Virus record (IMG/VR): IMGVR_UViG_2778261151_000006
Coordinates: 1 to 34,757 of that record
Length of the DNA: 34,757 nt
From: a virus
Taxonomy: Duplodnaviria; Heunggongvirae; Uroviricota; Caudoviricetes
Direction: 5' to 3' (one strand)
Of this stretch, positions 541 to 34,757 are shown in pieces (the stretch's first letter is position 1; the number at the start of each line of letters is the position of its first letter). The position numbers and the translations under genes are program-made. A model generated the notes under the pieces. It did no database searches. It saw only the letters and a list, made by a program, of their open reading frames with translations, and was not told the DNA's origin.

Positions 541-921
541 TTATGAGTTCTGGAATTCTTCTGCCCGTCTTTCCAGCTCAGCCATGAAAGAAGTTTTGGC
601 TTTTTCGTGAGCATCTGGGGCCATGATGCTGATGATTTGTATATTGTCATAATCCATCCAGTGCCTTGTATAAACCAGATAGATATTTGAAGTTCTGTCT
701 ATTTGGGCTTTGCTTTTCTTCCATGGTGGTTCTGACGGTAGTCTTATGTGTAATTTATATACAAACGAACCACATAATCTTGCGTTATCTTCCCACTGCC
801 CTTCATTGCCGAATCTGTCAGGGAGAACACCGGTATTTAACCAGTTTTCCAGAGCCTTTCCGTAAACTTTTGCAATGTCCTGGTATTCAACATCTTTATG
901 AATGCTTACTTTGCTTGCCAT
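541..921 (-). CDS. Hypothetical protein (126 aa), translationally coupled to the upstream gene
   Basis: ORF with ATGA stop/start overlap at 921 and GGAG 8 nt upstream of the ATG; no family recognised by eye. Confidence 0.55.
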   Translation of the reverse strand: MASKVSIHKDVEYQDIAKVYGKALENWLNTGVLPDRFGNEGQWEDNARLCGSFVYKLHIRLPSEPPWKKSKAQIDRTSNIYLVYTRHWMDYDNIQIISIMAPDAHEKAKTSFMAELERRAEEFQNS

Positions 922-1547
922 CAGGAAAACTCCGGTGCCGGGAGTCCCATGTTTTTATGCTCGGCAATAATCATTGCTTTCACATTTCCGTCAGACAGCG
1001 TATTGCCCAGGCTGGTCGTTTTGTCTGGTGCGGTGCTTCGTTTGATGGCGTTGATGGCATCACGAGCGATAAACTCCCCCTGCGCAATTGCCCGACCAAA
1101 ACGAACCAGTTTATTGCGATAGGCGATTCTTTGCTCCAGGCTATCCGGATACATTTTTGCCAGGTTATCCGGATCCATTACAATTTTGACAGCCTCTTTA
1201 ACACGGGTGTGCTGCTTAAGTGACTCTTCGCATATTTTTATGATTTTTGCGGTTTTGTCAGTAAACAGAGCTCCCTTGCCTCTGTTCTGTCGTTCTTCAA
1301 TGACTGCATTGAACGCGGCACGCATGTTGTCATTCAGCCCGTTGATATATTCAATAGCTTCTTCAAGAGGCAGAAACACCTGACCATCATGATGCTCAAA
1401 TGTAAGCATTGAAACCACTCTGGCGTGTGTCGCGGATTCAATAACTGTTGTTGGTAGTATCGTGCTTTTGGCTGGCACCGGAGCCAGTGATGCTGTCAGA
1501 GCTGTAGCAATAGCAGCAATGGCAGCAGACTTTGATTTTTGTTTCAT
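921..1547 (-). CDS. Hypothetical exported protein (208 aa) with N-terminal signal peptide
   Basis: Start chosen at ATG 1545-1547 (GGAG 6 nt upstream); N-terminus MKQKSKSAAIAAIATALTASLAPVPAKS is a typical Sec signal; longer ORF to 1559 is possible. Confidence 0.65.
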   Translation of the reverse strand: MKQKSKSAAIAAIATALTASLAPVPAKSTILPTTVIESATHARVVSMLTFEHHDGQVFLPLEEAIEYINGLNDNMRAAFNAVIEERQNRGKGALFTDKTAKIIKICEESLKQHTRVKEAVKIVMDPDNLAKMYPDSLEQRIAYRNKLVRFGRAIAQGEFIARDAINAIKRSTAPDKTTSLGNTLSDGNVKAMIIAEHKNMGLPAPEFS

Positions 1548-1720
1548 AATGCACTCCATAGGTTGATGTGTTCAGCATATCGCAAATAGCAGCTTGTATA
1601 AAGAAACGCCACATCAGCAGTGATCGTTTTACGCGCTTTTATTCTTGTTGCGATCCTTTTTTTCAGTTTTATTCGGGAGCTTAATTTTGTGCAGTCCGCG
1701 TCGCGTCTGGGTGAGGGTAG

Positions 1721-2090: not shown

Positions 2091-2178
2091 CTGGCCTTCG
2101 GGTATTCCCTCCAGCCATCAGCCGAAAGGCACCCGCGCGTAATCTATCGCTTTTTTGTTACTCCGGCAATTCTGCCTG

Positions 2179-2439
2179 TTAATTCTGAGGTAAAGGCAAA
2201 CTCATCTGATTGTTTCCCCTGTGTGAAGCTGGCAGCTCATGCCACGGGATACCTTCTGATGAGTGAACGCCGGAGGCGTGTTTCGATGTGAATTTATGGA
2301 AAGCTTCCAGTGTTGAGAAGCATACGCCGCATTCCAGGTTGTTACACTGGTAATACTTTTGCCGCACGGTGTTTGAATCATTTTCCGGACGACTGGTGCG
2401 GATACGGGCAGATGCGCCACAAAGCGGACAACGGAACAT
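2179..2439 (-). CDS. ogr: Ogr/Delta-family zinc-finger late-gene transcription activator
   Basis: N-terminus MFRCPLCG...YYQCNNLECG gives a C2C2 zinc finger like P2 Ogr; GGGAGG SD 7 nt upstream; position next to gene D. Confidence 0.8.
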   Translation of the reverse strand: MFRCPLCGASARIRTSRPENDSNTVRQKYYQCNNLECGVCFSTLEAFHKFTSKHASGVHSSEGIPWHELPASHRGNNQMSLPLPQN

Positions 2440-2481
2440 AGCGACCTCCCTTAACGTGGTGCTGTCGCTATTCTAAGTTGC

Positions 2482-3591
2482 TCAGTCTGTTTCCGCTATC
2501 CATTCCGGGATTTTTGCCTCAAGCTCAAGCTGCGTGGTAAAGCCGCTGTTATCAATGGTGTGCCCGGCTTTCGCAATAATCCAGTCCTGATTATCAATCT
2601 CGCTTTTAAATCCTGTTACCGTGCCATGCATTTCGGGGTAGAGTTCTGCACGTCCACGTGCCAGCGTGATGGAGAATGATGCGGCTCCGCGTTGTAGCTG
2701 CTGCCACTTTGCCGCCGCTGCGCGTCTTGCTGCCTGCTCGTTCTGATAAGTCTTGCGTAACACAAACACATTGCCTTCCGCGCCTTCCATATAATCACCT
2801 TCACGGCTGCTGCTTTTCTCCTTTTTGGGTTTTGGCGGTTTGCGGCGTTTCACGCTGACTTTTTTCTTTTTCCCGTAATTAAGATCAAGCCAGTAAGCGC
2901 GTACCCCCGTATACGCCTCGCGGTCAGCAATGCGGAACTGATGGCGATCGCCGCTGCTGCGTGTGATGGCGAACGATGGCAACGGCTGGCCCTGTGCGTT
3001 CACGCCACCGCCGGGCATGATGAATAACAGATTACCGCTTTTTACCGTGGTGATTGCGCCCAGCATTTCCGCCATGCGCGTAAGGAAGGACATGTCGCTT
3101 TCTTCAGTCTGGTCGGCGTGGTCGATTTCGATATCCATCAGCATTTCGCTGATTTGCGGTTTCAGACCGTACCGGTGAGCGATGGCGGATACCACGCGCT
3201 CAACGGTCACATCATGCCAGGACACCTCACGTTTAACGTTAAATTCATCCCGAAAATCTGCGCTTCTGGCTGAAACAGTCAGCCTGTCCGGCGGTCCTTC
3301 GTGAGCGATTTCATCAACAATATAAGTGCCTTTTTCTGTCAGTGGTTCTCCTTTCCAGCCAATGAGAACCGTCAGGCGCGCGCCCCGTGGTGGTAGCTGC
3401 AACTGACCATCTGCATCATCCAGCGTGATGGTGAGCTGGTCCGCTTCAAATCCCCGGTTGTCGGTCAGTGACAGGCTCATCAGTCGCTCTGTCACGTCGG
3501 GCAGTGTTTCACCTTCCGCGAGAATATCAAAATCCGGCATTTTCACGGGGTCCGGGCCCTGACTGAGCAATTGCATGGTGGTATCGGTCAT
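2482..3591 (-). CDS. P2 gpD-like tail protein (late control gene D family)
   Basis: 369 aa from ATG 3589-3591 with strong GGGAGGGA SD; contains LTDNRGFEADQLTITLDD region typical of the gpD family; ORF track extends it to 3723 but no SD there. Confidence 0.85.
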   Translation of the reverse strand: MTDTTMQLLSQGPDPVKMPDFDILAEGETLPDVTERLMSLSLTDNRGFEADQLTITLDDADGQLQLPPRGARLTVLIGWKGEPLTEKGTYIVDEIAHEGPPDRLTVSARSADFRDEFNVKREVSWHDVTVERVVSAIAHRYGLKPQISEMLMDIEIDHADQTEESDMSFLTRMAEMLGAITTVKSGNLLFIMPGGGVNAQGQPLPSFAITRSSGDRHQFRIADREAYTGVRAYWLDLNYGKKKKVSVKRRKPPKPKKEKSSSREGDYMEGAEGNVFVLRKTYQNEQAARRAAAAKWQQLQRGAASFSITLARGRAELYPEMHGTVTGFKSEIDNQDWIIAKAGHTIDNSGFTTQLELEAKIPEWIAETD

Positions 3592-22761: not shown

Positions 22762-24513
22762 ATGATTCAGGACGCTTTTGTGCGCCAGCGTGCGCGGCAA
22801 CTTTACTGGCAGGGTTATCCACCCGCAGAAATATCACGTCTGATGGGAATAAACCCGAACACGATTTATGCGTGGAAAAAACGCGACCAGTGGGATGAAA
22901 CGCCACCCGTGCAGCGTGTCACGCAGTCCATCGATGCGCGCCTCATCCAGCTTACTGAAAAACAGAATAAAACAGGCGGTGACTTTAAGGAAATAGACCT
23001 GCTGACCCGGCAGCTTAAAAAACTGCATGATGGCCAGCCGGATGCGACGGCCACAGGAAAGAAAGGCCGGGCGAAAAAACTCAAAAATCATTTCACGCCG
23101 GAGCAGATTGCCGCACTGCGGGAAAAAATCATCAGCAGGCTGGAGTGGCATCAGCGGGGCTGGTTTGACTCCCTGACCCTTTGCAGTGAAGCCGGGATAC
23201 GTAACAGGATGATCCTGAAATCCCGACAGATTGGGGCGACCTGGTATTTTGCACGGGAAGCACTGCTGATGGCGCTGCGTGACGATGTGGCACAACCTTA
23301 CCAGCGTAACCAGATTTTTTTGTCTGCGTCGCGTCGTCAGGCGTTCCAGTTTAAAAGCATTATTCAGAAGGCCGCGGCTGAAGTTGATGTGGAGCTGAAA
23401 GGGGGCGATAAAATCATCCTCTCCAACGGCGCAGAACTGCATTTTCTCGGTACTTCTGCTGCGACGGCACAGTCCTACACAGGCAATTTTTATTTTGATG
23501 AATTTTTCTGGGTCAGTCGCTTTGCTGAACTGCGCAAGGTGGCTGGCGCTATGGCAACCCTCAGCGGGCTGCGACGCACCTACTTCTCCACGCCATCCAC
23601 CGAAACGCACGAGGCATACGTCTACTGGAACGGCGACCGCTGGAACGAGAAAAAGGCCGCGCATAAACGCCAGCGTTTTTCTGTGGACTGGAAAACGCTG
23701 CATAACGGGCTTATCTGCCCCGACCGGACGTGGCGGCAAATTGTCACGCTGGAAGATGTGGTTAATCACGGCTGGAAACACACCGATATTGATGAAATTC
23801 GTGATGAAAACACCGAAGACGAGTTCCGCAATCTCTATATGTGTGAGTTTGTCCGCGAAGGGGAATCGGCATTTAACCTGAATATCCTGATTGGCTGCGG
23901 TGTTGATGGATACGACGACTGGAAAGACTGGAAACCTTTTGCTCCCCGCCCGATGGGGAATCGTCCGGTATGGATTGGGTATGACGCAAACGGCAGCAGT
24001 GGAAACGGCGACAGCGGCGCTGTGTCCGTGGTGGTTCCTCCGGCTGTTCCTGGTGGCCGTTTTCGAACGGTGGAGACGCGACGCGTTCAGGGGCTGGAGT
24101 TTGAAGAACAGGCCAGAGTCATTGAAGAGTTCACGTGTCGCTACAACGTGGAACACATCGGCATTGATGCGACTGGCGGGCACGGGGATGCCGTTTATCA
24201 GATAGTGAAACGGTTTTTCCCTGCTGCTATTCCGTACACCTTCACGCTGTCATCAAAACGGTCGCTGGTACTGAAAATGCTGCAAATAATGCGTGCCGGG
24301 CGGTGGGAATACGATCGCGCCGAACGCGAGCTGGTCGCGGCCTTTAACGCCGTGCGTAAGGTGAAAACACCGGGCGGCTTTATCACTTACGAAACGGACC
24401 GCGCGAGGGGGATCAGCCACGGCGACCTTGCGTGGGCAACCATGCTTGCTGTCATTAATGAACCGATTGGCGGCGAAGGAGAAAACGAGCGTTTCACGGT
24501 TATGGAGTTCTGA
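22762..24513 (+). CDS. Terminase large (ATPase) subunit (P2 gpP-like)
   Basis: 583 aa, N-terminal RQLYWQGY region, central ATPase and C-terminal nuclease-like part; GGGGGA SD. Confidence 0.9.
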   Translation: MIQDAFVRQRARQLYWQGYPPAEISRLMGINPNTIYAWKKRDQWDETPPVQRVTQSIDARLIQLTEKQNKTGGDFKEIDLLTRQLKKLHDGQPDATATGKKGRAKKLKNHFTPEQIAALREKIISRLEWHQRGWFDSLTLCSEAGIRNRMILKSRQIGATWYFAREALLMALRDDVAQPYQRNQIFLSASRRQAFQFKSIIQKAAAEVDVELKGGDKIILSNGAELHFLGTSAATAQSYTGNFYFDEFFWVSRFAELRKVAGAMATLSGLRRTYFSTPSTETHEAYVYWNGDRWNEKKAAHKRQRFSVDWKTLHNGLICPDRTWRQIVTLEDVVNHGWKHTDIDEIRDENTEDEFRNLYMCEFVREGESAFNLNILIGCGVDGYDDWKDWKPFAPRPMGNRPVWIGYDANGSSGNGDSGAVSVVVPPAVPGGRFRTVETRRVQGLEFEEQARVIEEFTCRYNVEHIGIDATGGHGDAVYQIVKRFFPAAIPYTFTLSSKRSLVLKMLQIMRAGRWEYDRAERELVAAFNAVRKVKTPGGFITYETDRARGISHGDLAWATMLAVINEPIGGEGENERFTVMEF

Positions 24514-25559
24514 TGAGCAGAAAAAATAAAAAAGTGCGCATGAGTTCACGCATTGATCTCGCTGATGCGCTCAGGAAAGAATCATCGCTCAGTGCATTCA
24601 CATTTGATGGTCCTTATCGCCTGACCGGGCATGACCTGCTGGACAATATGTACTGTGCTGATAACGGGCGGTGGTATGAAACCCCGGTGGACTGGTACGG
24701 TCTGGCAAGAGCTGCCCGGCAAACGTCCTGGCATCAGTCTGCGCTTTACTTTAAGCGCAATGTATTGCTCGGCTGCTATATTCCGCACCCGCTGCTTTCC
24801 CGGCAGGATTTCTCGGCGCTGGCGCTGGACTGGTTTGTGTTCGGTAACGCATTCCTTGAGCTTCGGAGCAATATGCTCGGCGAACCGCTTAAATTACGGC
24901 ACGCCCTGGCGAAATACATGCGACGCGGAAGCGATCTTGAATCATGGTGGTATGTGCAGGATGGCAAGGATGCGTTTCAGTTTCGTCCTGGCAAAGTGTG
25001 CCACCTGATGAATCCGGATATTAACCAGGAAATCTACGGCATGCCGGAATATCTTGGCGCATTACTCTCGGCCAGCCTTTCTCATTCGGCGGACATGTTC
25101 AGAAAACTGTACTACGACAACGGATCCCACGCCGGGTGCATCATCTACATCGGTGCAGCGCAGGTAAACCGCGAAAGCATGGACTCCCTGAAAGAAACGC
25201 TACAGGGGGCACGTGGTGGTGGTGCGTTTAAAAACGTGCTCATTCATGCGCCCAACGGGGGCAAAGAGGGGGTGCAAATTTTGCCGTTCCAGCAGATCAC
25301 CGCAAAGGATGAGTTCATGAATGTTAAGGCGGCATCCCGTGATGATGTGCTGGCTGCGCACCGCGTTCCGCCGCAACTGATGGGGGCGATGCCGGGCGAA
25401 AAAAGTGCGTTTGGTGATGTGGAGAAGGCCGCGCGGGTTTACGCAATTAACGAGCTGATGCCCGTCATGGAGGCCATGAAGCACATCAATGACTGGCTTG
25501 GCGAAGAGGTGATCCGCTTTAACCCTTACGCACTGTTAGACACCCAGCCCACATCCTGA
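24513..25559 (+). CDS. Portal protein (P2 gpQ-like)
   Basis: 348 aa; start overlaps terminase stop (TGATG); size and position. Confidence 0.9.
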   Translation: MSRKNKKVRMSSRIDLADALRKESSLSAFTFDGPYRLTGHDLLDNMYCADNGRWYETPVDWYGLARAARQTSWHQSALYFKRNVLLGCYIPHPLLSRQDFSALALDWFVFGNAFLELRSNMLGEPLKLRHALAKYMRRGSDLESWWYVQDGKDAFQFRPGKVCHLMNPDINQEIYGMPEYLGALLSASLSHSADMFRKLYYDNGSHAGCIIYIGAAQVNRESMDSLKETLQGARGGGAFKNVLIHAPNGGKEGVQILPFQQITAKDEFMNVKAASRDDVLAAHRVPPQLMGAMPGEKSAFGDVEKAARVYAINELMPVMEAMKHINDWLGEEVIRFNPYALLDTQPTS

Positions 25560-26034
25560 CGCGCTTCGCTTGTCTGCTGCTTCGCCGGGGCATAAAAAAT
25601 TTATGCCCCGACTCTCCAGCTCCTGTATCAGTCAGATAATTTCACGACGCTTTCCTGCTGATTGCCATCATCGACAGTCAGACTCTTACGCAATCCCACC
25701 TCGTTGACTGCATATTCTCGCCGTCTCAGTGCGATTTTGACGGCCTTACCTTTCACCCCATCAAATCAAAAGCCCTCACGTCTTTTTCACGCTCAGCGTG
25801 AGAAATACAGCCATTCTGTTGTATCTCTGCGACATCGTTCAGGGAATGCTATTTACCCCCTGAAACGCGGGCTGTTCCCCCGTCACCTGCGCGCAGAAAA
25901 AACGCGTTTTTTTGTGCATGCACGGATCCTTGACGGATCCAGCCGCCACGCGGGCCGGAAGGGCAAAAAGTCGTTCAAAAAAATTGTGCAAATTTGTGCA
26001 CTATTGTGCATTTATAAAATCAACTAAAAAACAC
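25560..26034. other. Non-coding cos-proximal region (predicted packaging site region)
   Basis: 475 bp without credible ORF between portal gene and accessory genes; contains the palindromes ggggcataaaaaatttatgcccc, a6cgcgt6 and ggatccttgacggatcc; exact cos ends not identified. Confidence 0.4.
25984..26010. repeat. Three TTGTGCA direct repeats phased at 10-bp intervals
   Basis: ttgtgca at 25984, 25994 and 26004; helical phasing suggests a protein-binding array. Confidence 0.5.
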
Positions 26035-26050
26035 CTAGTGTGACTTACCT

Positions 26051-26236
26051 CTACCACTCGATCGGCACGTAGTCATTAAGTTCCGGAGACCAATTGCACT
26101 TTTCACATCTGTGTTTTCCATTCTGGCAGATACATAAACGATAACGGCCACAATGCGGGCACCCATTTTCACCATTATCATAATCACCGAGCGACCATTC
26201 CTGCATAAGCAGCTCTTCTTCATCATCATTTAGCAT
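26051..26236 (-). CDS. Hypothetical small zinc-ribbon protein (61 aa)
   Basis: CPHCGRYRLCICQNGKHRCEKC cysteine pattern; acidic N-terminus; last gene of the cos-proximal accessory operon. Confidence 0.5.
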   Translation of the reverse strand: MLNDDEEELLMQEWSLGDYDNGENGCPHCGRYRLCICQNGKHRCEKCNWSPELNDYVPIEW

Positions 26237-26250
26237 TAATCCCCCTTGAG

Positions 26251-26490
26251 CTATTTACTCTTCTCGGCCCTCAAAATCATACGAGAACCATCATCCAGCT
26301 CCCAATTAATTTCACCGCCTTCTGCCATGACTAGATGCCAAACGAGTTGAGCGGCCTCGTTGGTTACATCGCGACCGCGATCATTTCCTACGCGGCGTTT
26401 TGTTCCGTCTCCTAAGTCACGCATTTTTGCCAATACGATGGTTTTTGATAGCGGTGAAAAACCAAGCTGTAGTCGTGCTGAATTACTCAC
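26251..26490 (-). CDS. Hypothetical protein (79 aa)
   Basis: ORF whose start overlaps the upstream stop by 4 nt (ATGA); no family recognised. Confidence 0.5.
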   Translation of the reverse strand: MSNSARLQLGFSPLSKTIVLAKMRDLGDGTKRRVGNDRGRDVTNEAAQLVWHLVMAEGGEINWELDDGSRMILRAEKSK

Positions 26491-27011
26491 TGGCTGCCCC
26501 CTTTGTACTGTGTTAACTCTTCCTGCTCCTGCATCATGCGATTGACCTGAACGCGTGTGCGTCGAACGGCAAAATTAAATTGAAACATGAGCCGGAACAT
26601 TTCTGATGCTTCCGTGTGAGCATCACGGATAGGTGACAGGCGGTACAGTTCTGCCTCCGTAGCTTGTTGAATCAATGACAGATCAAATTGAAGTGCGGGT
26701 CTGGTACATTTTGCACATCTGGCAGCAAGCTCCGGTATTAGTCTCTTAACGAAGGTGTTTTGCACCGCTTTGTTGATTTGTGTCTGCATCCAAATCGCAA
26801 ATTTCAGCGAACGCATAAGTTTGATAGCCTCGGGCAGCGGCAGATAGATCATGCTGGTAGATTTGGGTGGTTGGTGAACCATCTTCACGGATACGCGATT
26901 TCGCAGCGTTCGGAAAATCGTGTTCCCAACAACAGCTTCTACGGATACAGGACAGGGAGCCAGACCAGCCCGCAGTGCTTCTTTCATTAGCATGTATTCG
27001 TATTTTTTCAT
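26487..27011 (-). CDS. Hypothetical protein (174 aa)
   Basis: ORF with GAGGAAAA SD; no family recognised. Confidence 0.55.
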   Translation of the reverse strand: MKKYEYMLMKEALRAGLAPCPVSVEAVVGNTIFRTLRNRVSVKMVHQPPKSTSMIYLPLPEAIKLMRSLKFAIWMQTQINKAVQNTFVKRLIPELAARCAKCTRPALQFDLSLIQQATEAELYRLSPIRDAHTEASEMFRLMFQFNFAVRRTRVQVNRMMQEQEELTQYKGGSQ

Positions 27012-27071
27012 CGTGTTTTCCTCGTGCGGGGCGACAGTGCACCCCGATAAAATTAAAAGCCGTCAAATTCG

Positions 27072-27383
27072 TCATTCAGGAAATAATGCCCGGATATTCC
27101 CTGCTATCTGACTGGTTATCTGTGCGGTTGGTACTGGCTGTGGCACGGGGCGTTCTGTCCTGGTTTGTGTCACCGATAACGCCTCATCGTCAGCCCATGC
27201 AGCCAGTCGGTAAGCCTCTGCTGGATTCATTTTCAGAAGTGCCAGCCCGGCCAGAAAAGCCACGCGTTGGCCGCTTTTGCGGGCTTCTGGTGTAAGGCTG
27301 CCCAGCAAGGCGCATGCTTCGCTTTCGTTCTTGACGGCCGCAGGCTTCAGATAGAAACTTATCCGTCTGGTTGGTGTCGTCAT
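27072..27383 (-). CDS. parR: ParR-like centromere-binding protein (type II partition)
   Basis: 103 aa from ATG 27381-27383, 4 nt after parM stop with AAGGAG SD; segments RRISFYLKP, AFLAGLAL, IRALFPE resemble plasmid R1 ParR as recalled. Confidence 0.65.
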   Translation of the reverse strand: MTTPTRRISFYLKPAAVKNESEACALLGSLTPEARKSGQRVAFLAGLALLKMNPAEAYRLAAWADDEALSVTQTRTERPVPQPVPTAQITSQIAGNIRALFPE

Positions 27384-27387
27384 TGGT

Positions 27388-28347
27388 TTACTCCTTGTCC
27401 ATTGCGTACAGCCCATTAACCAGAGCAAACTGTGGCACCCCGTCCGCGATGAAAGTCGCATTAACTCCGCAGGCTTCGCGGATAGCGGGTGCCACAATCT
27501 CCGCCCCTCCACCGACAACCATCACCCGCCCGTAACCCGAAAAACCCGCCAGCGCGCGGATCACGCGTTGTTTCAGTGTTTCTTCCTTTTCACGAATAAC
27601 CGCCATCAGGCTGGCGTAATGCGCGTCATTGTGGATGTGCTGGCGCAGCCAGGCTTCATCATGGCGATGTTCGATAATGGTATTGGCGATGTGGTGACTG
27701 GTGCGCATACCGTTAGTGGCCATCACCGACAGTACGGCATCGGCCATCAGAGAAACGCCTACGTGTGGATCGCAAAACACCTGGCTGATACCTGCCAGTT
27801 GCCCCTGAACCTTTGCCACATCCAGCGTGGTTCCGCCCAAATCCACAATCAGCAGGGATTCAAACGGACTCATGTCAGCCAGTGCCTTAAAGCCAGCCGG
27901 AATGGATTCAGGCATAACCCGCACGTTACGGATAGTGAATGCTTCGCCGTTCTGGTACTCCACCGGGCGCATAACGTTCGCTTTTTTGCGGTTGATGTTG
28001 GCCATGTCCGGCTGTGCGTTTGTGTCGAAATACTCGCTCAGTGGCAGGGTGACAACCACATCCACCTCCTGTGGCGTGATGCCTGATTTGACCAGCGCGT
28101 GATGAATGGCAATGACATTTACATCGCTGTATTGGTATTGCGTGTCGGTTGTCTGGACAAAGCGATCGCTGACCGGATCAAAACCATAGCGCACGCCATC
28201 AAGCATGTAGTTCGCGGGCTGCATGCCACCGAACGGCGCAGACCATTCCGACTTGAAGCTGTTCGGGCTGATGGCGTTGCGGCGTTCGCCGTTCTCAGTC
28301 CATGCCAGCTTGATGTTGGTGGAGCCGTCGTCGATACAAATTTTCAT
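27388..28347 (-). CDS. parM: ParM/StbA-like actin-family segregation ATPase
   Basis: 319 aa; N-terminus MKICIDDGSTNIKLAW and motifs YSDVNV-AIHHAL, VDLGGTTLDV, GVSL, VVGGGAE match R1 ParM as recalled. Confidence 0.85.
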   Translation of the reverse strand: MKICIDDGSTNIKLAWTENGERRNAISPNSFKSEWSAPFGGMQPANYMLDGVRYGFDPVSDRFVQTTDTQYQYSDVNVIAIHHALVKSGITPQEVDVVVTLPLSEYFDTNAQPDMANINRKKANVMRPVEYQNGEAFTIRNVRVMPESIPAGFKALADMSPFESLLIVDLGGTTLDVAKVQGQLAGISQVFCDPHVGVSLMADAVLSVMATNGMRTSHHIANTIIEHRHDEAWLRQHIHNDAHYASLMAVIREKEETLKQRVIRALAGFSGYGRVMVVGGGAEIVAPAIREACGVNATFIADGVPQFALVNGLYAMDKE

Positions 28348-28378
28348 GTCGCTTTTCCTTATGTTGATTAATTAATCG

Positions 28379-28490
28379 ATTACGGGATTCTGAAATCCCG
28401 TTTTTGCCTGTTTTGTGCGCGCTTCATATATCGCTGCGCGTTTTTTGCTCATTTACGGGATTCGTGAGTCCCGTTTCTGTCTGTTTTTTG
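28379..28490. repeat. Two about 39-bp direct repeats, each with a hairpin-forming palindrome, upstream of parM and overlapping the 3' end of A
   Basis: attacgggattctgaaatcccgtttttgcctgttttgtg (28379-28417) and atttacgggattcgtgagtcccgtttctgtctgttttttg (28451-28490). Confidence 0.5.
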
Positions 28491-31264
28491 TTTCCACTGG
28501 TCAGGCCACCCCGCAGCAGGTCTGCTTTGCGGCGGGCGCGTTCAGTGGTTTCACTGATTCTCTGTGCGTGCTCTGCGTCGCGGATGGCGCGCAGCATGTC
28601 AGAAAGCACGGTAACGGGTGTTTTCATGGTGTTCTGGTCCTGCTGAAGTATGGATGCCAGGCGTGCGGCTGCTTCGGGGTCTGATGTCCCCAGCTGTTCC
28701 AGATAGCTGGCGACAGGGTTATGACGGATCTCCGTGCTGCTTACGCCGTGATTACGGCTCAGGCGTTGCCAGAGTTGCGTGATTCGGCTGTCCGGGCGGG
28801 TATCCGGTTTGCGTACAATTTCAAATCCCTGCGGTGCAATGATGCTGCCGTCAACGTACAGACTGCCGCCCCGTAACAAGTGCTGCATCTGTTGTTCACC
28901 GATATGCAGGCCGAGAGATTCAGCAGACTCCCGCCATTCTTTAGCGAGTAATTCGTGGTTATCAGGCAAAGGCCGCGGCTGTTTGCGGCTCTGCGTCCAG
29001 TTCTGCATTTCATCACTGCTGTTTTTTGCCTGTTTGTCACGAAGCGAACGCATCAGCGCCCGGCGTTCGTGCCGTTTCAGTGAGCGCATCCATTCGTTCA
29101 CTTCAACGCCGTCAGGGAGCTGCGGCCACGGTGCTGGCCGTTCTTCCGGCTGTTCTGTCCCGTTGTTGTTCGTTTCCTGTACACGGGGACAGTTATTGCC
29201 ACGAGTCCAAGGGGCGGCAGGGCCGCCCTGAAGGTCAAAACCATTTTCGCGGGCGCTGTCTTCCGCTTCCGGTTTGCGTCTTACCAGCTTCCAGTTATCC
29301 GGATGCGTGCACACACGGGAGGATTCCCCGATGAGTGGTGACCAGATCCCGTAAATCTGTACGCTCTGTTCGCCGTAATCGTTCAGCTCATCTGCGAGGT
29401 CGTAGGCGGTGCGAATCAGGTAGTCCTTGCGTGGAACAAGTACGCCGCCCTGTTTCTCTATGTAGGTGGCAAAACATCCGGCATCAGCGGCAGCGAGTAC
29501 CGCATCCATTGCGTCATCCTTCAGCCGTTGCGGGCCTTCCGGGTTGCGTGCCATCTGGCTGGCAAGGCGGCGGAGTTCACGCCATACCTGACGGGAGGGG
29601 ATGCCAAAGAACTGGAACTGGCGGACCCGGTGAAGGCGCGCCCAGCCGATGGCGCGTTCCACACTCTCGGCCATTGATTTTCCGGTTTCGTGGTCAACGC
29701 GTGGCTTGCCCGTTTTCGGGTCGATGCCATCCACGGCGCGGCTGTCCAGGTTCTTTCCGATGTAGGTGGCGATGTAGCTGGTTGGCGTGCCTTTTGAGCC
29801 GTCGACGTACTCCGCCTTAAAACGCGGAGTTATGTCATCGCCCAGCTCGTGGCGGTCTTCCTGAATGGCAATATCGCGGGTGATGGCCACGATGCTGTCG
29901 ATTTCTTCCGGATGAGCAAAGACCATCATGTGCCAGTGCACGGTGCCGTCATGGTGAGGCTCCACCGTGCGGATGCCATACCAGCGCAGGCCGTCGCGGT
30001 TCAGTTTTTTGCGGACCGCCGCAAAAAACGTGTTAACCAGGTAATCGCTGGAGTCGCGCATGGTGGCCCCGTTCCATTTGGGGTTCGGATGACCGTTCTC
30101 CGTTGTTGCGTGGTATTTTGACGGGCAGGTGACAGTCAGAAACACCGCTCTGTCGCCACGGGCTTCGGCCAGAAGTTCCAGTCCCTTCATGGTGGCCATC
30201 ATTTCTGCCTTACGGTGAACCGGGTTACTTACTCCCGCGTAATACACTGTCTCGAGATCAATCGTGAACCCGTCTTCATTTTCCAGCATGAAACTTTTCA
30301 GGAAATCGCGTGTTTTCTCGCGTTGTGCGCGAAACTCGCTTAACGCGTCCTGGCTCAGATAGGGTGATGTTTTTCTGGAAACCAGACAGGCGGCGCGGAG
30401 TTGTTCTTCCCGCCACTCGCAACGTAACAGCCACAGTTTGCGTTTCCACCATTCCGCACAGGTCAGGCGAAGGATTGCGCCCGGCAGCAGCTCCGTATTC
30501 GGTGCGTTCTTCCGGTCTTTGTCCGTTCTCAGTGCTTCGTAATGCGGCGGCATGGCGTGCAGGTGTAACGCCATGCGGGCCAGCATCTGATACGCCTTCA
30601 GCGTTACATCCATGGTCAGTTCGCCATCAGTCGCGCCAAAGCCATCGCAGAGTTTTTCGAAGGTGCTGCTGAACATCGCCGCCGTCATGGTGGCCAGCGT
30701 CTGTATCTGGTGTTTGTTGAGCTGCGGCAGGTAAAGCAAATCGTCCAGGCGTTCGCGTCCGGCAAGGGAGCGATAACCCGGTGTCAGCCAGCGGTGATCG
30801 GTGCGGTCCAGACGTTCGAATATTTTGCGCAGGGTTCCGCGCGCGTAGCGTTCAGCCTGCCAGCTCTTTTTGCCTTTCTGGCGATCGGCTTCCTGTTTTT
30901 TGCGCAGGAAAGAGAGGTGGCGGCTCAGAGGCTCACGCAGATAAACGGGAAGCACCTTCAGTGTGGCAAAAGCACGGGCCACCGGGTCTTGTTCTGTTGC
31001 CTGACGCTTGCTGATGATGCTTTGTGCCAGCTTTTCACGCTGTCCGGCTTCCTCAAGGGATGCCATGAGTTTTTTACCCACGGTGGATTGTGCGAAAAAG
31101 GCTTCCTCCTTCGCTTCCTGTTCTTCCAGAGCCTTTTTGTCTGCCTCAAGGTAGTAACGGATGGCGCGTTGCAGGTCGGTTTCAGTTTCCTGCCTGTGCT
31201 CCGTAAATCTGGCCGGATCAATGGCTGGCCGTGGTTCATTCCAGCTCCATGCAAACTCACTCAT
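28424..31264 (-). CDS. Replication initiation protein (P2 gpA-like rolling-circle endonuclease)
   Basis: 946 aa from ATG 31262-31264 (ATGA overlap with upstream gene); HUH-like motif HHDGTVHWHMMVF and tyrosine motif YIATYIGK. Confidence 0.85.
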   Translation of the reverse strand: MSEFAWSWNEPRPAIDPARFTEHRQETETDLQRAIRYYLEADKKALEEQEAKEEAFFAQSTVGKKLMASLEEAGQREKLAQSIISKRQATEQDPVARAFATLKVLPVYLREPLSRHLSFLRKKQEADRQKGKKSWQAERYARGTLRKIFERLDRTDHRWLTPGYRSLAGRERLDDLLYLPQLNKHQIQTLATMTAAMFSSTFEKLCDGFGATDGELTMDVTLKAYQMLARMALHLHAMPPHYEALRTDKDRKNAPNTELLPGAILRLTCAEWWKRKLWLLRCEWREEQLRAACLVSRKTSPYLSQDALSEFRAQREKTRDFLKSFMLENEDGFTIDLETVYYAGVSNPVHRKAEMMATMKGLELLAEARGDRAVFLTVTCPSKYHATTENGHPNPKWNGATMRDSSDYLVNTFFAAVRKKLNRDGLRWYGIRTVEPHHDGTVHWHMMVFAHPEEIDSIVAITRDIAIQEDRHELGDDITPRFKAEYVDGSKGTPTSYIATYIGKNLDSRAVDGIDPKTGKPRVDHETGKSMAESVERAIGWARLHRVRQFQFFGIPSRQVWRELRRLASQMARNPEGPQRLKDDAMDAVLAAADAGCFATYIEKQGGVLVPRKDYLIRTAYDLADELNDYGEQSVQIYGIWSPLIGESSRVCTHPDNWKLVRRKPEAEDSARENGFDLQGGPAAPWTRGNNCPRVQETNNNGTEQPEERPAPWPQLPDGVEVNEWMRSLKRHERRALMRSLRDKQAKNSSDEMQNWTQSRKQPRPLPDNHELLAKEWRESAESLGLHIGEQQMQHLLRGGSLYVDGSIIAPQGFEIVRKPDTRPDSRITQLWQRLSRNHGVSSTEIRHNPVASYLEQLGTSDPEAAARLASILQQDQNTMKTPVTVLSDMLRAIRDAEHAQRISETTERARRKADLLRGGLTSGNKKQTETGLTNPVNEQKTRSDI

Positions 31265-31650
31265 GGCTGGTATCCCGTCACGCGCTGCCACTCCTGCGAG
31301 AAGAGGGCAGAAAGGCGGTTAAATTCAGCGGTGTATTCACTCAGCGAGGCACACCCGCCAGCAGTGCGATGCGCCAGCATTGCCGCAAATACGGAGGCCG
31401 GGGAGTCGTAATACGCCAGCAGTGATTCTCCGTGTGGTGTCAGGCAGTGCAACGCCAGCCCGTGTGGTGTGAAGTCCACGCGGTAGCAGTCGTCTACTGT
31501 GAAATAAAGGGTGTCTGCATTCTCCGGTTTTGTGGTGCGTGCTCTGTTGTCACGACCACGGATGTAGAGATCAAATAATCCCTGAAGAACGGGAGCCAGA
31601 CGGGTGTCCTGTGTGCGCACCCATCTTGTGAAGTCATGAGCGTCAATCAT
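31261..31650 (-). CDS. Hypothetical early protein (129 aa)
   Basis: ORF translationally coupled to A. Confidence 0.55.
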   Translation of the reverse strand: MIDAHDFTRWVRTQDTRLAPVLQGLFDLYIRGRDNRARTTKPENADTLYFTVDDCYRVDFTPHGLALHCLTPHGESLLAYYDSPASVFAAMLAHRTAGGCASLSEYTAEFNRLSALFSQEWQRVTGYQP

Positions 31651-34194: not shown

Positions 34195-34757
34195 GTAAGC
34201 GGCTCGCCAGAACCGTATTGATATTTACTGAGAAGTCAGATCAACTTTCCAGGGCAACAGATCGCGTACCCGGTTTGCCGGCCAGTCCTGGATATGCTCA
34301 ATAACGTAACGCAGCCATTTTTCTGGCTCTACATTGTTCAGACGGCATGTGCCGATCAGCGAGTACAACACCGCCGCATGTTCGCCACCGCTGTCGGAAC
34401 CCGCGAAGAGCCAGTTTTTCCGGCCTACGGCCACTCCCCGTAAGGCGTTCTCTGCGATGTTGTTGTCGATTTCCACCCAGCCATTACTGCAGTACACGTT
34501 CAGGGCCTCCCACTGTTTCAGCAGGTATGTGAACGCTTTTGCCGTATCCGAGTGACGCGACAGTGTTTTCATCTGTTGCTGTATCCAGTCATACAGTGAC
34601 TGCATCAGTGGAGCCGCTCTGGCTTTTCTTGCTGCCAGACGCTGTTCTGCTGAACATCCCCGGACTTCTGCCTCGATGACATACAGTTCACCGATACGCT
34701 GCAGGGCTTCCGTGGTGATGTCGGTTGGCACTCTTGCATGCACATCGTGGATTTTTC
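34195..34757 (-). mobile_element. IS66-family insertion sequence, 3' portion (continues beyond window end)
   Basis: Terminal GTAAGCG at 34195-34201 about 30 bp past the transposase stop; IS66-family inverted repeats start with GTAA as recalled; exact boundary unverified. Confidence 0.65.
34225..34757 (-). CDS. IS66-family transposase (TnpC), C-terminal fragment truncated by the window edge
   Basis: C-terminal sequence [38 protein letters not shown] typical of IS66 TnpC as recalled. Confidence 0.8.

Follow-up and report, generated by a model that had tools for sequence, protein, structure and literature searches.

We have analyzed a stretch of 34,757 nucleotides (IMG/VR record IMGVR_UViG_2778261151_000006, positions 1 to 34,757; referred to below as the window) that represents a prophage of Escherichia coli belonging to the P2 family and, within it, to the P88-like group (Xuanwuvirus). 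Next to its replication gene gpA there are two genes, parM and parR, that code for an actin-like ATPase and for the predicted adaptor that would connect it to DNA. Both are members of partition protein families, are intact, evolve under purifying selection and keep a conserved position, and together with two upstream repeats they form a cassette that resides in chromosomes. The explanation that we favor, and to which we would give a little less than an even chance, is that this cassette is a complete and functional type II (ParMRC-type) DNA segregation system, which would segregate early circular copies of the phage genome to the daughter cells before integration. Slightly more tentative is the wider proposal that one branch of the P2-like phages has long kept a ParMRC system of its own, with a minimal centromere of two palindromes, either to distribute the early circles or to organize the excised ones.

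There is prior knowledge of these genes. The GenBank and RefSeq entries of P88, of related phages and of more than 1000 E. coli chromosomes describe them as 'plasmid segregation protein ParM' and 'plasmid partitioning/stability family protein', the PHROGs 691 and 2515 are labelled as 'partition protein' families, and the GenBank record of phage D6 cites similarity to 'phage P88 StbA'. (Rousset et al., 2022; PMC9122126) found that about a fourth of the P2-like phages carry a putative plasmid partitioning system in the hotspot between gpA and gpQ, and they already raised the idea of plasmid maintenance for P2-like prophages. The finding has, in consequence, already been published, and so has its headline interpretation. 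What is added here is the chromosomal residence, the purifying selection, an apparently phage-specific clade that extends across genera and a candidate centromere made of two palindromes.

The parM and parR genes

The gene parM (27388-28347, minus strand) codes for a protein of 319 amino acids that matches the actin-like partition ATPases over its full length, from end to end, with values of 2.7e-82 for the Pfam domain StbA_N and 1.3e-68 for the ParM C-terminal domain. The same assignment was obtained with PHROG 691 (3.4e-90) and with the crystal structures of R1 ParM (8.5e-93), and the alignment to these structures conserves the phosphate- and adenosine-binding motifs IDDGSTNIKL, MPESIPAG, DLGGTTLD and GGGAE. 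The protein is 99.7% identical to the ParM of phage P88 and 46.5% identical to that of R100. Downstream, parR (or stbB; 27072-27383, minus strand) codes for 103 amino acids, a predicted ribbon-helix-helix centromere adaptor. The open reading frame (ORF) listed for it, 27072-27518, is over-extended from a TTG codon; the true start is the ATG at 27383, 4 nucleotides past the parM stop and with a Shine-Dalgarno sequence (AAGGAG) located within the 3' end of parM, an arrangement indicative of translational coupling of parR to parM. A first-pass annotation of this DNA had recognized a ParM-like gene and a tightly coupled ParR-like gene, and the profile matches and the spacing of the two genes bear this out.

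The assignment of ParR relies on the match to Pfam PF10784 (Plasmid_stab_B, 7.7e-23), the same family to which the StbB/ParR of R100 belongs (2.6e-30), and on the match to PHROG 2515 (1.8e-54). Its N-terminus is invariant and consists of the strand TRRISFYLKP (MTTPTRRISFYLKP) and the helix QRxAFLAGLAL. The eight C-terminal residues, NIxxxFPE, do not vary either, and the variation is confined to a hypervariable linker at residues 64-95. We found at least five ParR alleles, each about 50% identical to the one in the window, and all the retrieved ParR ORFs were intact. These diverged alleles coexist with a near-invariant parM (at least 95%) and with near-identical upstream sites, and their divergence may stem from recombination, from relaxed constraint or from diversifying selection. 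The C-terminus can be aligned with the end of R100 ParR (KKNAMKLIN) and with the K/R-N-A-x-x-LFP found in other members of the family. In the case of R1, the C-terminus of ParR reportedly is the ParM-binding peptide, according to the work of Gayathri and colleagues from 2012. An AlphaFold2 model of the ParR monomer had low confidence (mean predicted local distance difference test, pLDDT, of 60) and left the N-terminal segment unmodelled, with helices at 20-29, 32-52 and 86-100 and a disordered stretch at 65-84; being a low-confidence monomer, unable to form the ribbon, it can be described as compatible with a strand-helix-helix protein. Conserved ends joined by a variable linker are the pattern expected from a working adaptor and would not be that of a relic.

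The cassette shares with the ParMRC (parA/stb) systems of R1 and R100 the ParM fold and motifs, the Pfam family of ParR, the order parC-parM-parR (with the repeats as candidate parC), the tight coupling of parM and parR and the conserved K/R-N-x-x-x-L tail at the C-terminus of ParR. There are differences too. The replicon is here an integrating P2-like phage, the region upstream of parM is just 76 bp of intergenic DNA, with the second site within the coding end of gpA, and ParR is shorter (103 against 116 amino acids in R100), lacking the mid-protein helix segment of other family members.

Selection was estimated on parM. A scan of IMG/VR with this protein returned 80 loci, all at least 99% identical, that were used for population statistics only. 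The gene was intact in 83 of 84 copies, the sole exception being a deletion remnant in which parM had been lost (locus L088). Over 67 distinct sequences the synonymous polymorphism (pS) was 0.076 and the nonsynonymous one (pN) 0.004, giving a pN/pS of 0.054, so that parM is under strong purifying selection. These numbers bear on the idea that the cassette is no more than what is left of a past plasmid capture, decaying or neutral and without present function. The remnant just mentioned could be taken in that sense, as could the fact that the cassette is dispensable and missing from some close relatives. However, the low pN/pS, the intact parM copies, the intact ParR ORFs with their conserved ends and a position kept across genera at 54-63% protein identity all speak against decay, and we consider this explanation very improbable.

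Two palindromic repeats upstream of parM

The first-pass annotation had also proposed that 39-bp repeats upstream of parM could be the centromere. They are in fact two copies of 38 nucleotides, located at 28380-28417 and 28453-28490, that share 82% identity at a spacing of 73 bp, and each holds a 20-bp palindrome, ACGGGAyT-N4-AATCCCGT. Only these two palindromes of this kind appear in the window, where 0.2 would be expected by chance. In the proximal repeat (candidate parC site 2) the palindrome is found at 28382-28401 (ACGGGATT-CTGA-AATCCCGT), with its center about 45 nucleotides upstream of the parM ATG. In the distal repeat (candidate parC site 1) it is found at 28455-28474, within the final codons of gpA. 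Closer to parM, at 28351-28376 on the minus strand, a ATTAATTAATCAA box and an AAGGA ribosome-binding site precede the gene, and P88, Hafnia and Plesiomonas all share the arrangement ATTAATCAA...TAAGG.

The repeats travel with the two genes. When the window was compared with P88-like prophages devoid of parMR (L086 and L087), in which the 3' segment of gpA was about 95% identical, the homology ended at about 28520-28535, which we take as the outer boundary of the cassette. Both 38-nucleotide repeats were missing from these sister prophages, and there is an IMG/VR locus in which the DNA immediately upstream of the distal repeat is the 3' end of a different gpA. For these two reasons the repeats can be assigned to the cassette, and so can the final 35 codons or so of gpA (28424-28530, minus strand); this 3' tail is part of parMR and not of the gpA backbone.

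A shorter version of the motif, YGGGWY-N6-AWCCC, was present in two copies upstream of parM in P88, Hafnia and Plesiomonas, always 72-74 bp apart and at alike offsets from the parM ATG (about -130 and -57) in the three genera, in upstream DNA that can otherwise barely be aligned. Elsewhere there were none in the 34.7 kb of the window, in 17.4 kb of Plesiomonas and in 11 kb of Hafnia, with a chance expectation of 0.07-0.23, bearing in mind that the motif had been derived from the same six sites on which it was counted. In Serratia and Enterobacter the ParR strand is different (NRKISFYLKP) and the motif is absent; an inverted pair with GGGAAC...ATAGAAAAAT arms is found there at similar positions. 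Such a joint change of protein and site is the co-variation that would be expected of a ParR operator. Within E. coli no covariation of ParR allele and palindrome variant was seen, which fits the invariant N-terminus of ParR.

These data are favorable to the suggestion that the repeats are centromere candidates, as they are absent from the sisters without parMR, mark the boundary of the cassette and keep the position of their core in three genera. We consider the pair of palindromes a likely candidate, which would represent a compact and non-canonical parC. The parC of R1/R100 has about ten direct iterons of 11 bp flanking a promoter, whereas here there would be two palindromes of 17-20 bp set 73 bp apart. 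No canonical array of many short direct iterons was present upstream of parM in the window. Arrays of this type, 150-400 bp long and made of many short iterons, do appear in R100, in D6 and in the IncF/IncFIC plasmid pKTa005_5.

Other readings of the same repeats were tried and dropped. A structure formed at the RNA level was discarded because the variants ACAGGATT, AAACCCGT and AATCCCAT break the pairing without compensation; the changes found in the O157 variant of the palindrome are compatible with G-U pairing on the sense strand. An intrinsic terminator was also considered, but the hairpin with its T-run lies on the plus strand, opposite to all the local genes, and one of the copies is inside gpA. 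We judge it a by-product of the A-rich flank of the sense strand. As for R1-like 'AAAACRG' sub-iterons with a phasing of 10-11 bp, their counts are not independent of the 38-nucleotide duplication and they are left as speculation only.

Chromosomal residence and origin of the lineage

DNA of parMR was detected in 1307 of the 5426 complete E. coli genomes (24%), at 1453 chromosomal places and only 2 places in plasmids. (Rousset et al., 2022; PMC9122126) described the same genes at the same locus in about a fourth of the cases, the denominator being P2-like loci there and genomes here. They list the system as part of the content of the hotspot, whereas in our analysis the cassette directly adjoins gpA with the variable cargo outside it, is found across genera and has a defined candidate centromere. 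In the GTDB species representatives the scan gave only 3 hits, each with an identity of 98% or more, in E. albertii, Salmonella and an assembly labelled Vagococcus. The last one ('Vagococcus sp. WN89Y', NZ_JBQPOM010000071.1) has an E. coli-type ParM, 98% identical, on a contig of 226 kb and is probably an assembly contamination.

The first-pass annotation had proposed that the element might be kept as a low-copy episome, that is, as a phage-plasmid whose inheritance would be ensured by parMR, an idea also in print (PMC9122126). The presence of a full partition cassette under selection would agree with it. The plasmid collections provide few cases, as the cassette appeared in 7 of the 72,556 plasmids of PLSDB, five of which are replicons of 0.2-1.4 Mb and another a linear contig labelled 'unnamed plasmid' and ridden with insertion sequences (IS). 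The remaining record (NZ_CP148288.1, from a cat isolate) is a circle of 34,461 bp that corresponds to a complete P88-like genome, linearized beside the integrase gene. However, a stretch of 12.5 kb of this circle is 100% identical to a chromosomal prophage of a sibling strain (H223, NZ_CP148378.1), a human isolate of the same study series. Similarly, in Plesiomonas shigelloides (WEKF01000002.1) a P2-like element with parMR makes up an exactly phage-sized contig of 32,167 bp, with the integrase 142 nucleotides from its end, which may be either an excised or episomal form or the result of an assembly break at att. An integrase is encoded in both of these relatives, the two that were examined end to end, and its location at the end of the record is what either excision or an assembly break at att would be expected to produce.

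The copy in the window is itself integrated, its left end adjoining genes for tRNA-Gly, tRNA-Cys and tRNA-Leu (1-303). Besides, gpA, a rolling-circle endonuclease, was the sole replication gene seen among the portion of the window ORFs that was scanned. In P2, gpA sits in an early operon controlled by the repressor, and a replicating episome would for this reason not be a quiescent lysogen. Given the chromosomal residence and the weakness of the plasmid records, stable episomal carriage is not the normal state of this element and we consider it unlikely as the purpose of parMR; the element may still take on a circular form transiently or now and then.

The alternative proposal of the same annotation, the capture of a plasmid stability module, was not supported either, at least as a recent event. 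In the collections of phages and plasmids, the ParM proteins of the P88 lineage (at least 95% identical) are followed, after a gap, by that of D6 at 48% and those of plasmids at about 53% or less, the nearest plasmid ParM being about 52% identical. It was in a large protein database that closer relatives appeared, with 54-63% identity, in Plesiomonas, Hafnia, Serratia and Enterobacter. All those looked up were located in P2-like prophages and in the same slot, with the order gpA, zero to two small ORFs, parM, parR, cargo and portal. A relative from Pantoea, at 52%, was found in a plasmid context. In a neighbour-joining tree, built without bootstrap, the phage ParM proteins form a cluster of their own, distinct from D6 and from the plasmid clades of R100 type and IncFIC type. 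The shared slot of the 54-63% relatives and this clustering point to an old, phage-adapted lineage, so that the cassette looks like a phage-specific line of ParM and not like a recent plasmid capture. By the same comparisons, it has apparently accompanied one branch of the P2-like phages as an accessory for a long time.

Among described phages, P88 (NC_026014) and other Xuanwuvirus carry essentially the same element, with DNA 97% identical over the shared part, and differ only in the ParR allele and in the cargo between parR and portal. The P1-like phage-plasmid D6 also has an R1-type ParM (47.8% identical), accompanied by a ParR of PF10784. D6 differs in being an element of 91 kb, with an upstream array of about 260 bp of short TCTCA iterons and a ParM that falls outside the cluster of the P2-like phages. 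P1-like phages have plasmid prophages.

Possible role and neighboring genes

Since the phage lives integrated, the most likely substrate of a segregation system is the free circular genome, which would exist transiently after infection and early gpA-driven replication, before integration, and again after excision. ParR dimers would attach to the palindromic pair immediately upstream of parM and use their conserved C-terminal helix to capture or cap the ends of the ATP-driven ParM filaments, and the growing filaments would drive apart the DNA molecules that bear the sites. With the copies spread in this way, both daughter cells would inherit one able to integrate or to keep replicating. The cassette follows gpA in the same orientation after a gap of 76 bp, and no terminator-like site was found between gpA and parM on that strand, so that parMR is probably expressed together with the early replication operon. 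Co-transcription with gpA, and also the timing and the benefit of the system, are what we infer here. Overall, the most likely role is to move the phage DNA while it is transiently outside the chromosome as a free circle, and not stable maintenance as a phage-plasmid.

The location directly after gpA, in the same orientation and without a predicted terminator in between, would also agree with a function in the lytic cycle. In that case the filaments tethered by ParR would position the circular monomers, for example at the membrane or off the nucleoid, and the efficiency of replication or packaging would increase. The products of P2 replication are circular monomers and, as substrates, resemble plasmids. 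A precedent for such an organizer, and also for a partition-type system at work on free phage DNA, is found in the CGP3 prophage of Corynebacterium glutamicum, in which AlpA and AlpC are induced early, the co-transcribed adaptor AlpA binds repeats (alpS) upstream of its own operon, the system acts on the excised circular phage DNA, and the deletion of either gene halves the phage copy number (PMC4446434). The two cases are alike in that an integrated prophage codes for an actin-like filament former and for a DNA-binding adaptor, but AlpC belongs to a distant actin-like family that is not R1-type ParM and the adaptors are unrelated, so the likeness is functional and not one of family membership. 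On the other side, the ParM studied here is an orthodox R1-type protein (about 47% identical to R100 ParM), whose known activity is the bipolar pushing of paired plasmids, and the cassette seems to be missing from about a fifth of the genomes that have this type of gpA. The sequence does not separate this role from segregation. We regard the lytic organizer as a doubtful candidate, yet the one to be considered next after segregation of the early circles.

Several points weigh against the segregation of early circles as the role of parMR. About 290 of 1580 genomes match the 3' end of gpA without the adjoining parM stretch, and with about 18% of the genomes with this gpA type possibly lacking the cassette, it would be dispensable. 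The candidate centromere has just two sites, and for this reason the cassette may not support true partition. In the P88 population, the conservation of its palindrome arms did not exceed that of the spacer (0.03-0.05 against 0.03) and loop 2 alone was clearly more variable (0.23), and the cross-genus motif suffers from the circularity indicated above. A sigma-70 scan upstream of parM found no promoter, and the same scan was also blank on the parC of R100 (25508-25653). R1-type plasmids carry the parA promoter in the parC region. As the scan misses a known promoter region of R1 type, it allows no conclusion about an own promoter of parMR or about its expression in the lysogen. Finally, we found no functional study or experiment on the parMR cassette in the searchable literature.

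The location of the cassette raises one more alternative. The gpA-to-gpQ locus is the site of old and tin in P2 and a hotspot that holds anti-phage systems (Rousset et al., 2022; PMC9122126). That parMR occupies this slot had been stated by the first-pass annotation and is correct, with gpA (28424-31291, minus strand; Pfam Phage_GPA at 1.2e-130) directly upstream of parM on the same strand and the terminase and portal-like ORFs (22762-25559, plus strand; named after the matching P88-like records) on the other side. It could then be thought that ParR and its sites serve to interfere with incoming related phages, satellites or plasmids, or that ParR is mainly a transcription regulator. The presence or absence of the cassette among close relatives, which resembles that of hotspot cargo, and the striking allelic diversity of ParR would support this view. 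However, neither ParM nor ParR had matches in PADLOC, the variable cargo is always outside the cassette, from parR to portal, and the titration of sites would not need an intact ParM ATPase under selection. Furthermore, the diversity of ParR is limited to the linker and does not reach the ends that would bind DNA and ParM. A role unrelated to segregation has, in our opinion, a small probability.

The question of why an integrating phage retains a partition machine is a real one and easily testable. About a quarter of the complete E. coli genomes carry this cassette in an integrated prophage, under strong purifying selection, and if it acts on a short-lived circle it would be a new determinant of how efficiently a classic family of phages lysogenizes or replicates. 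Segregation serving a transient episome would mean a higher yield of lysogens or of progeny per infection. It would also provide a naturally minimal ParR-binding centromere of two sites, useful for dissecting how ParR and parC capture ParM filaments. If it were ordinary hotspot cargo, the finding would amount to annotation only.

The variable cargo itself (26051-27011, minus strand) consists of three small ORFs between parR and the cos/portal side, outside the partition cassette, and differs between prophages that are otherwise near-identical. They code for a protein of 174 amino acids without family, one of 79 amino acids with DUF7446 and one of 61 amino acids with a weak zinc-ribbon match, and none of them was matched by PADLOC. 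The segment at about 26260-26505 was 80-91% identical to segments of lambdoid and other unrelated phages (among them a Yersinia phage, a Lambdavirus and a Salmonella phage), indicating that this cargo is a mosaic common to several phage families. The cassette can be lost, and P88-like prophages without parMR have defence-like cargo directly after gpA. In L086 these are an AAA ATPase and an S8 peptidase (2156-3277 and 1-2132), and in an Enterobacter P2-like prophage (L097, 6411-7757) a KAP NTPase comes after parR.

Regarding the rest of the prophage, the order found was an ogr-like gene, the tail and capsid genes, the terminase and portal-like ORFs, the variable cargo and then parR, parM, gpA and early genes on the minus strand. 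The Pfam matches to Ogr_Delta and Phage_GPA in the window agree with the gene set and order of P2, and the full P2-type order is visible in the annotated twin NZ_CP148288.1. The DNA of the stretch 25500-28700 was 94-97% identical to the records of phages of the P88 group over the shared parts. The P2 cos sequence had no match and cos was not located. At the right edge (34225-34743, minus strand), inside the early-gene region, there is the C-terminal part of an IS66-family transposase; as the window contains neither cox nor the repressor nor the integrase, the prophage may be disrupted. At the opposite, attachment-site end, between tRNA-Leu and ogr (541-1559, minus strand), we found a gene for a YafO-family toxin (126 amino acids, Pfam 1.1e-27) and, overlapping it upstream, an ORF of 212 amino acids without known family, a pair that resembles toxin-antitoxin cargo. 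In other P88-like prophages this YafO gene is found in the slot between gpA and portal.

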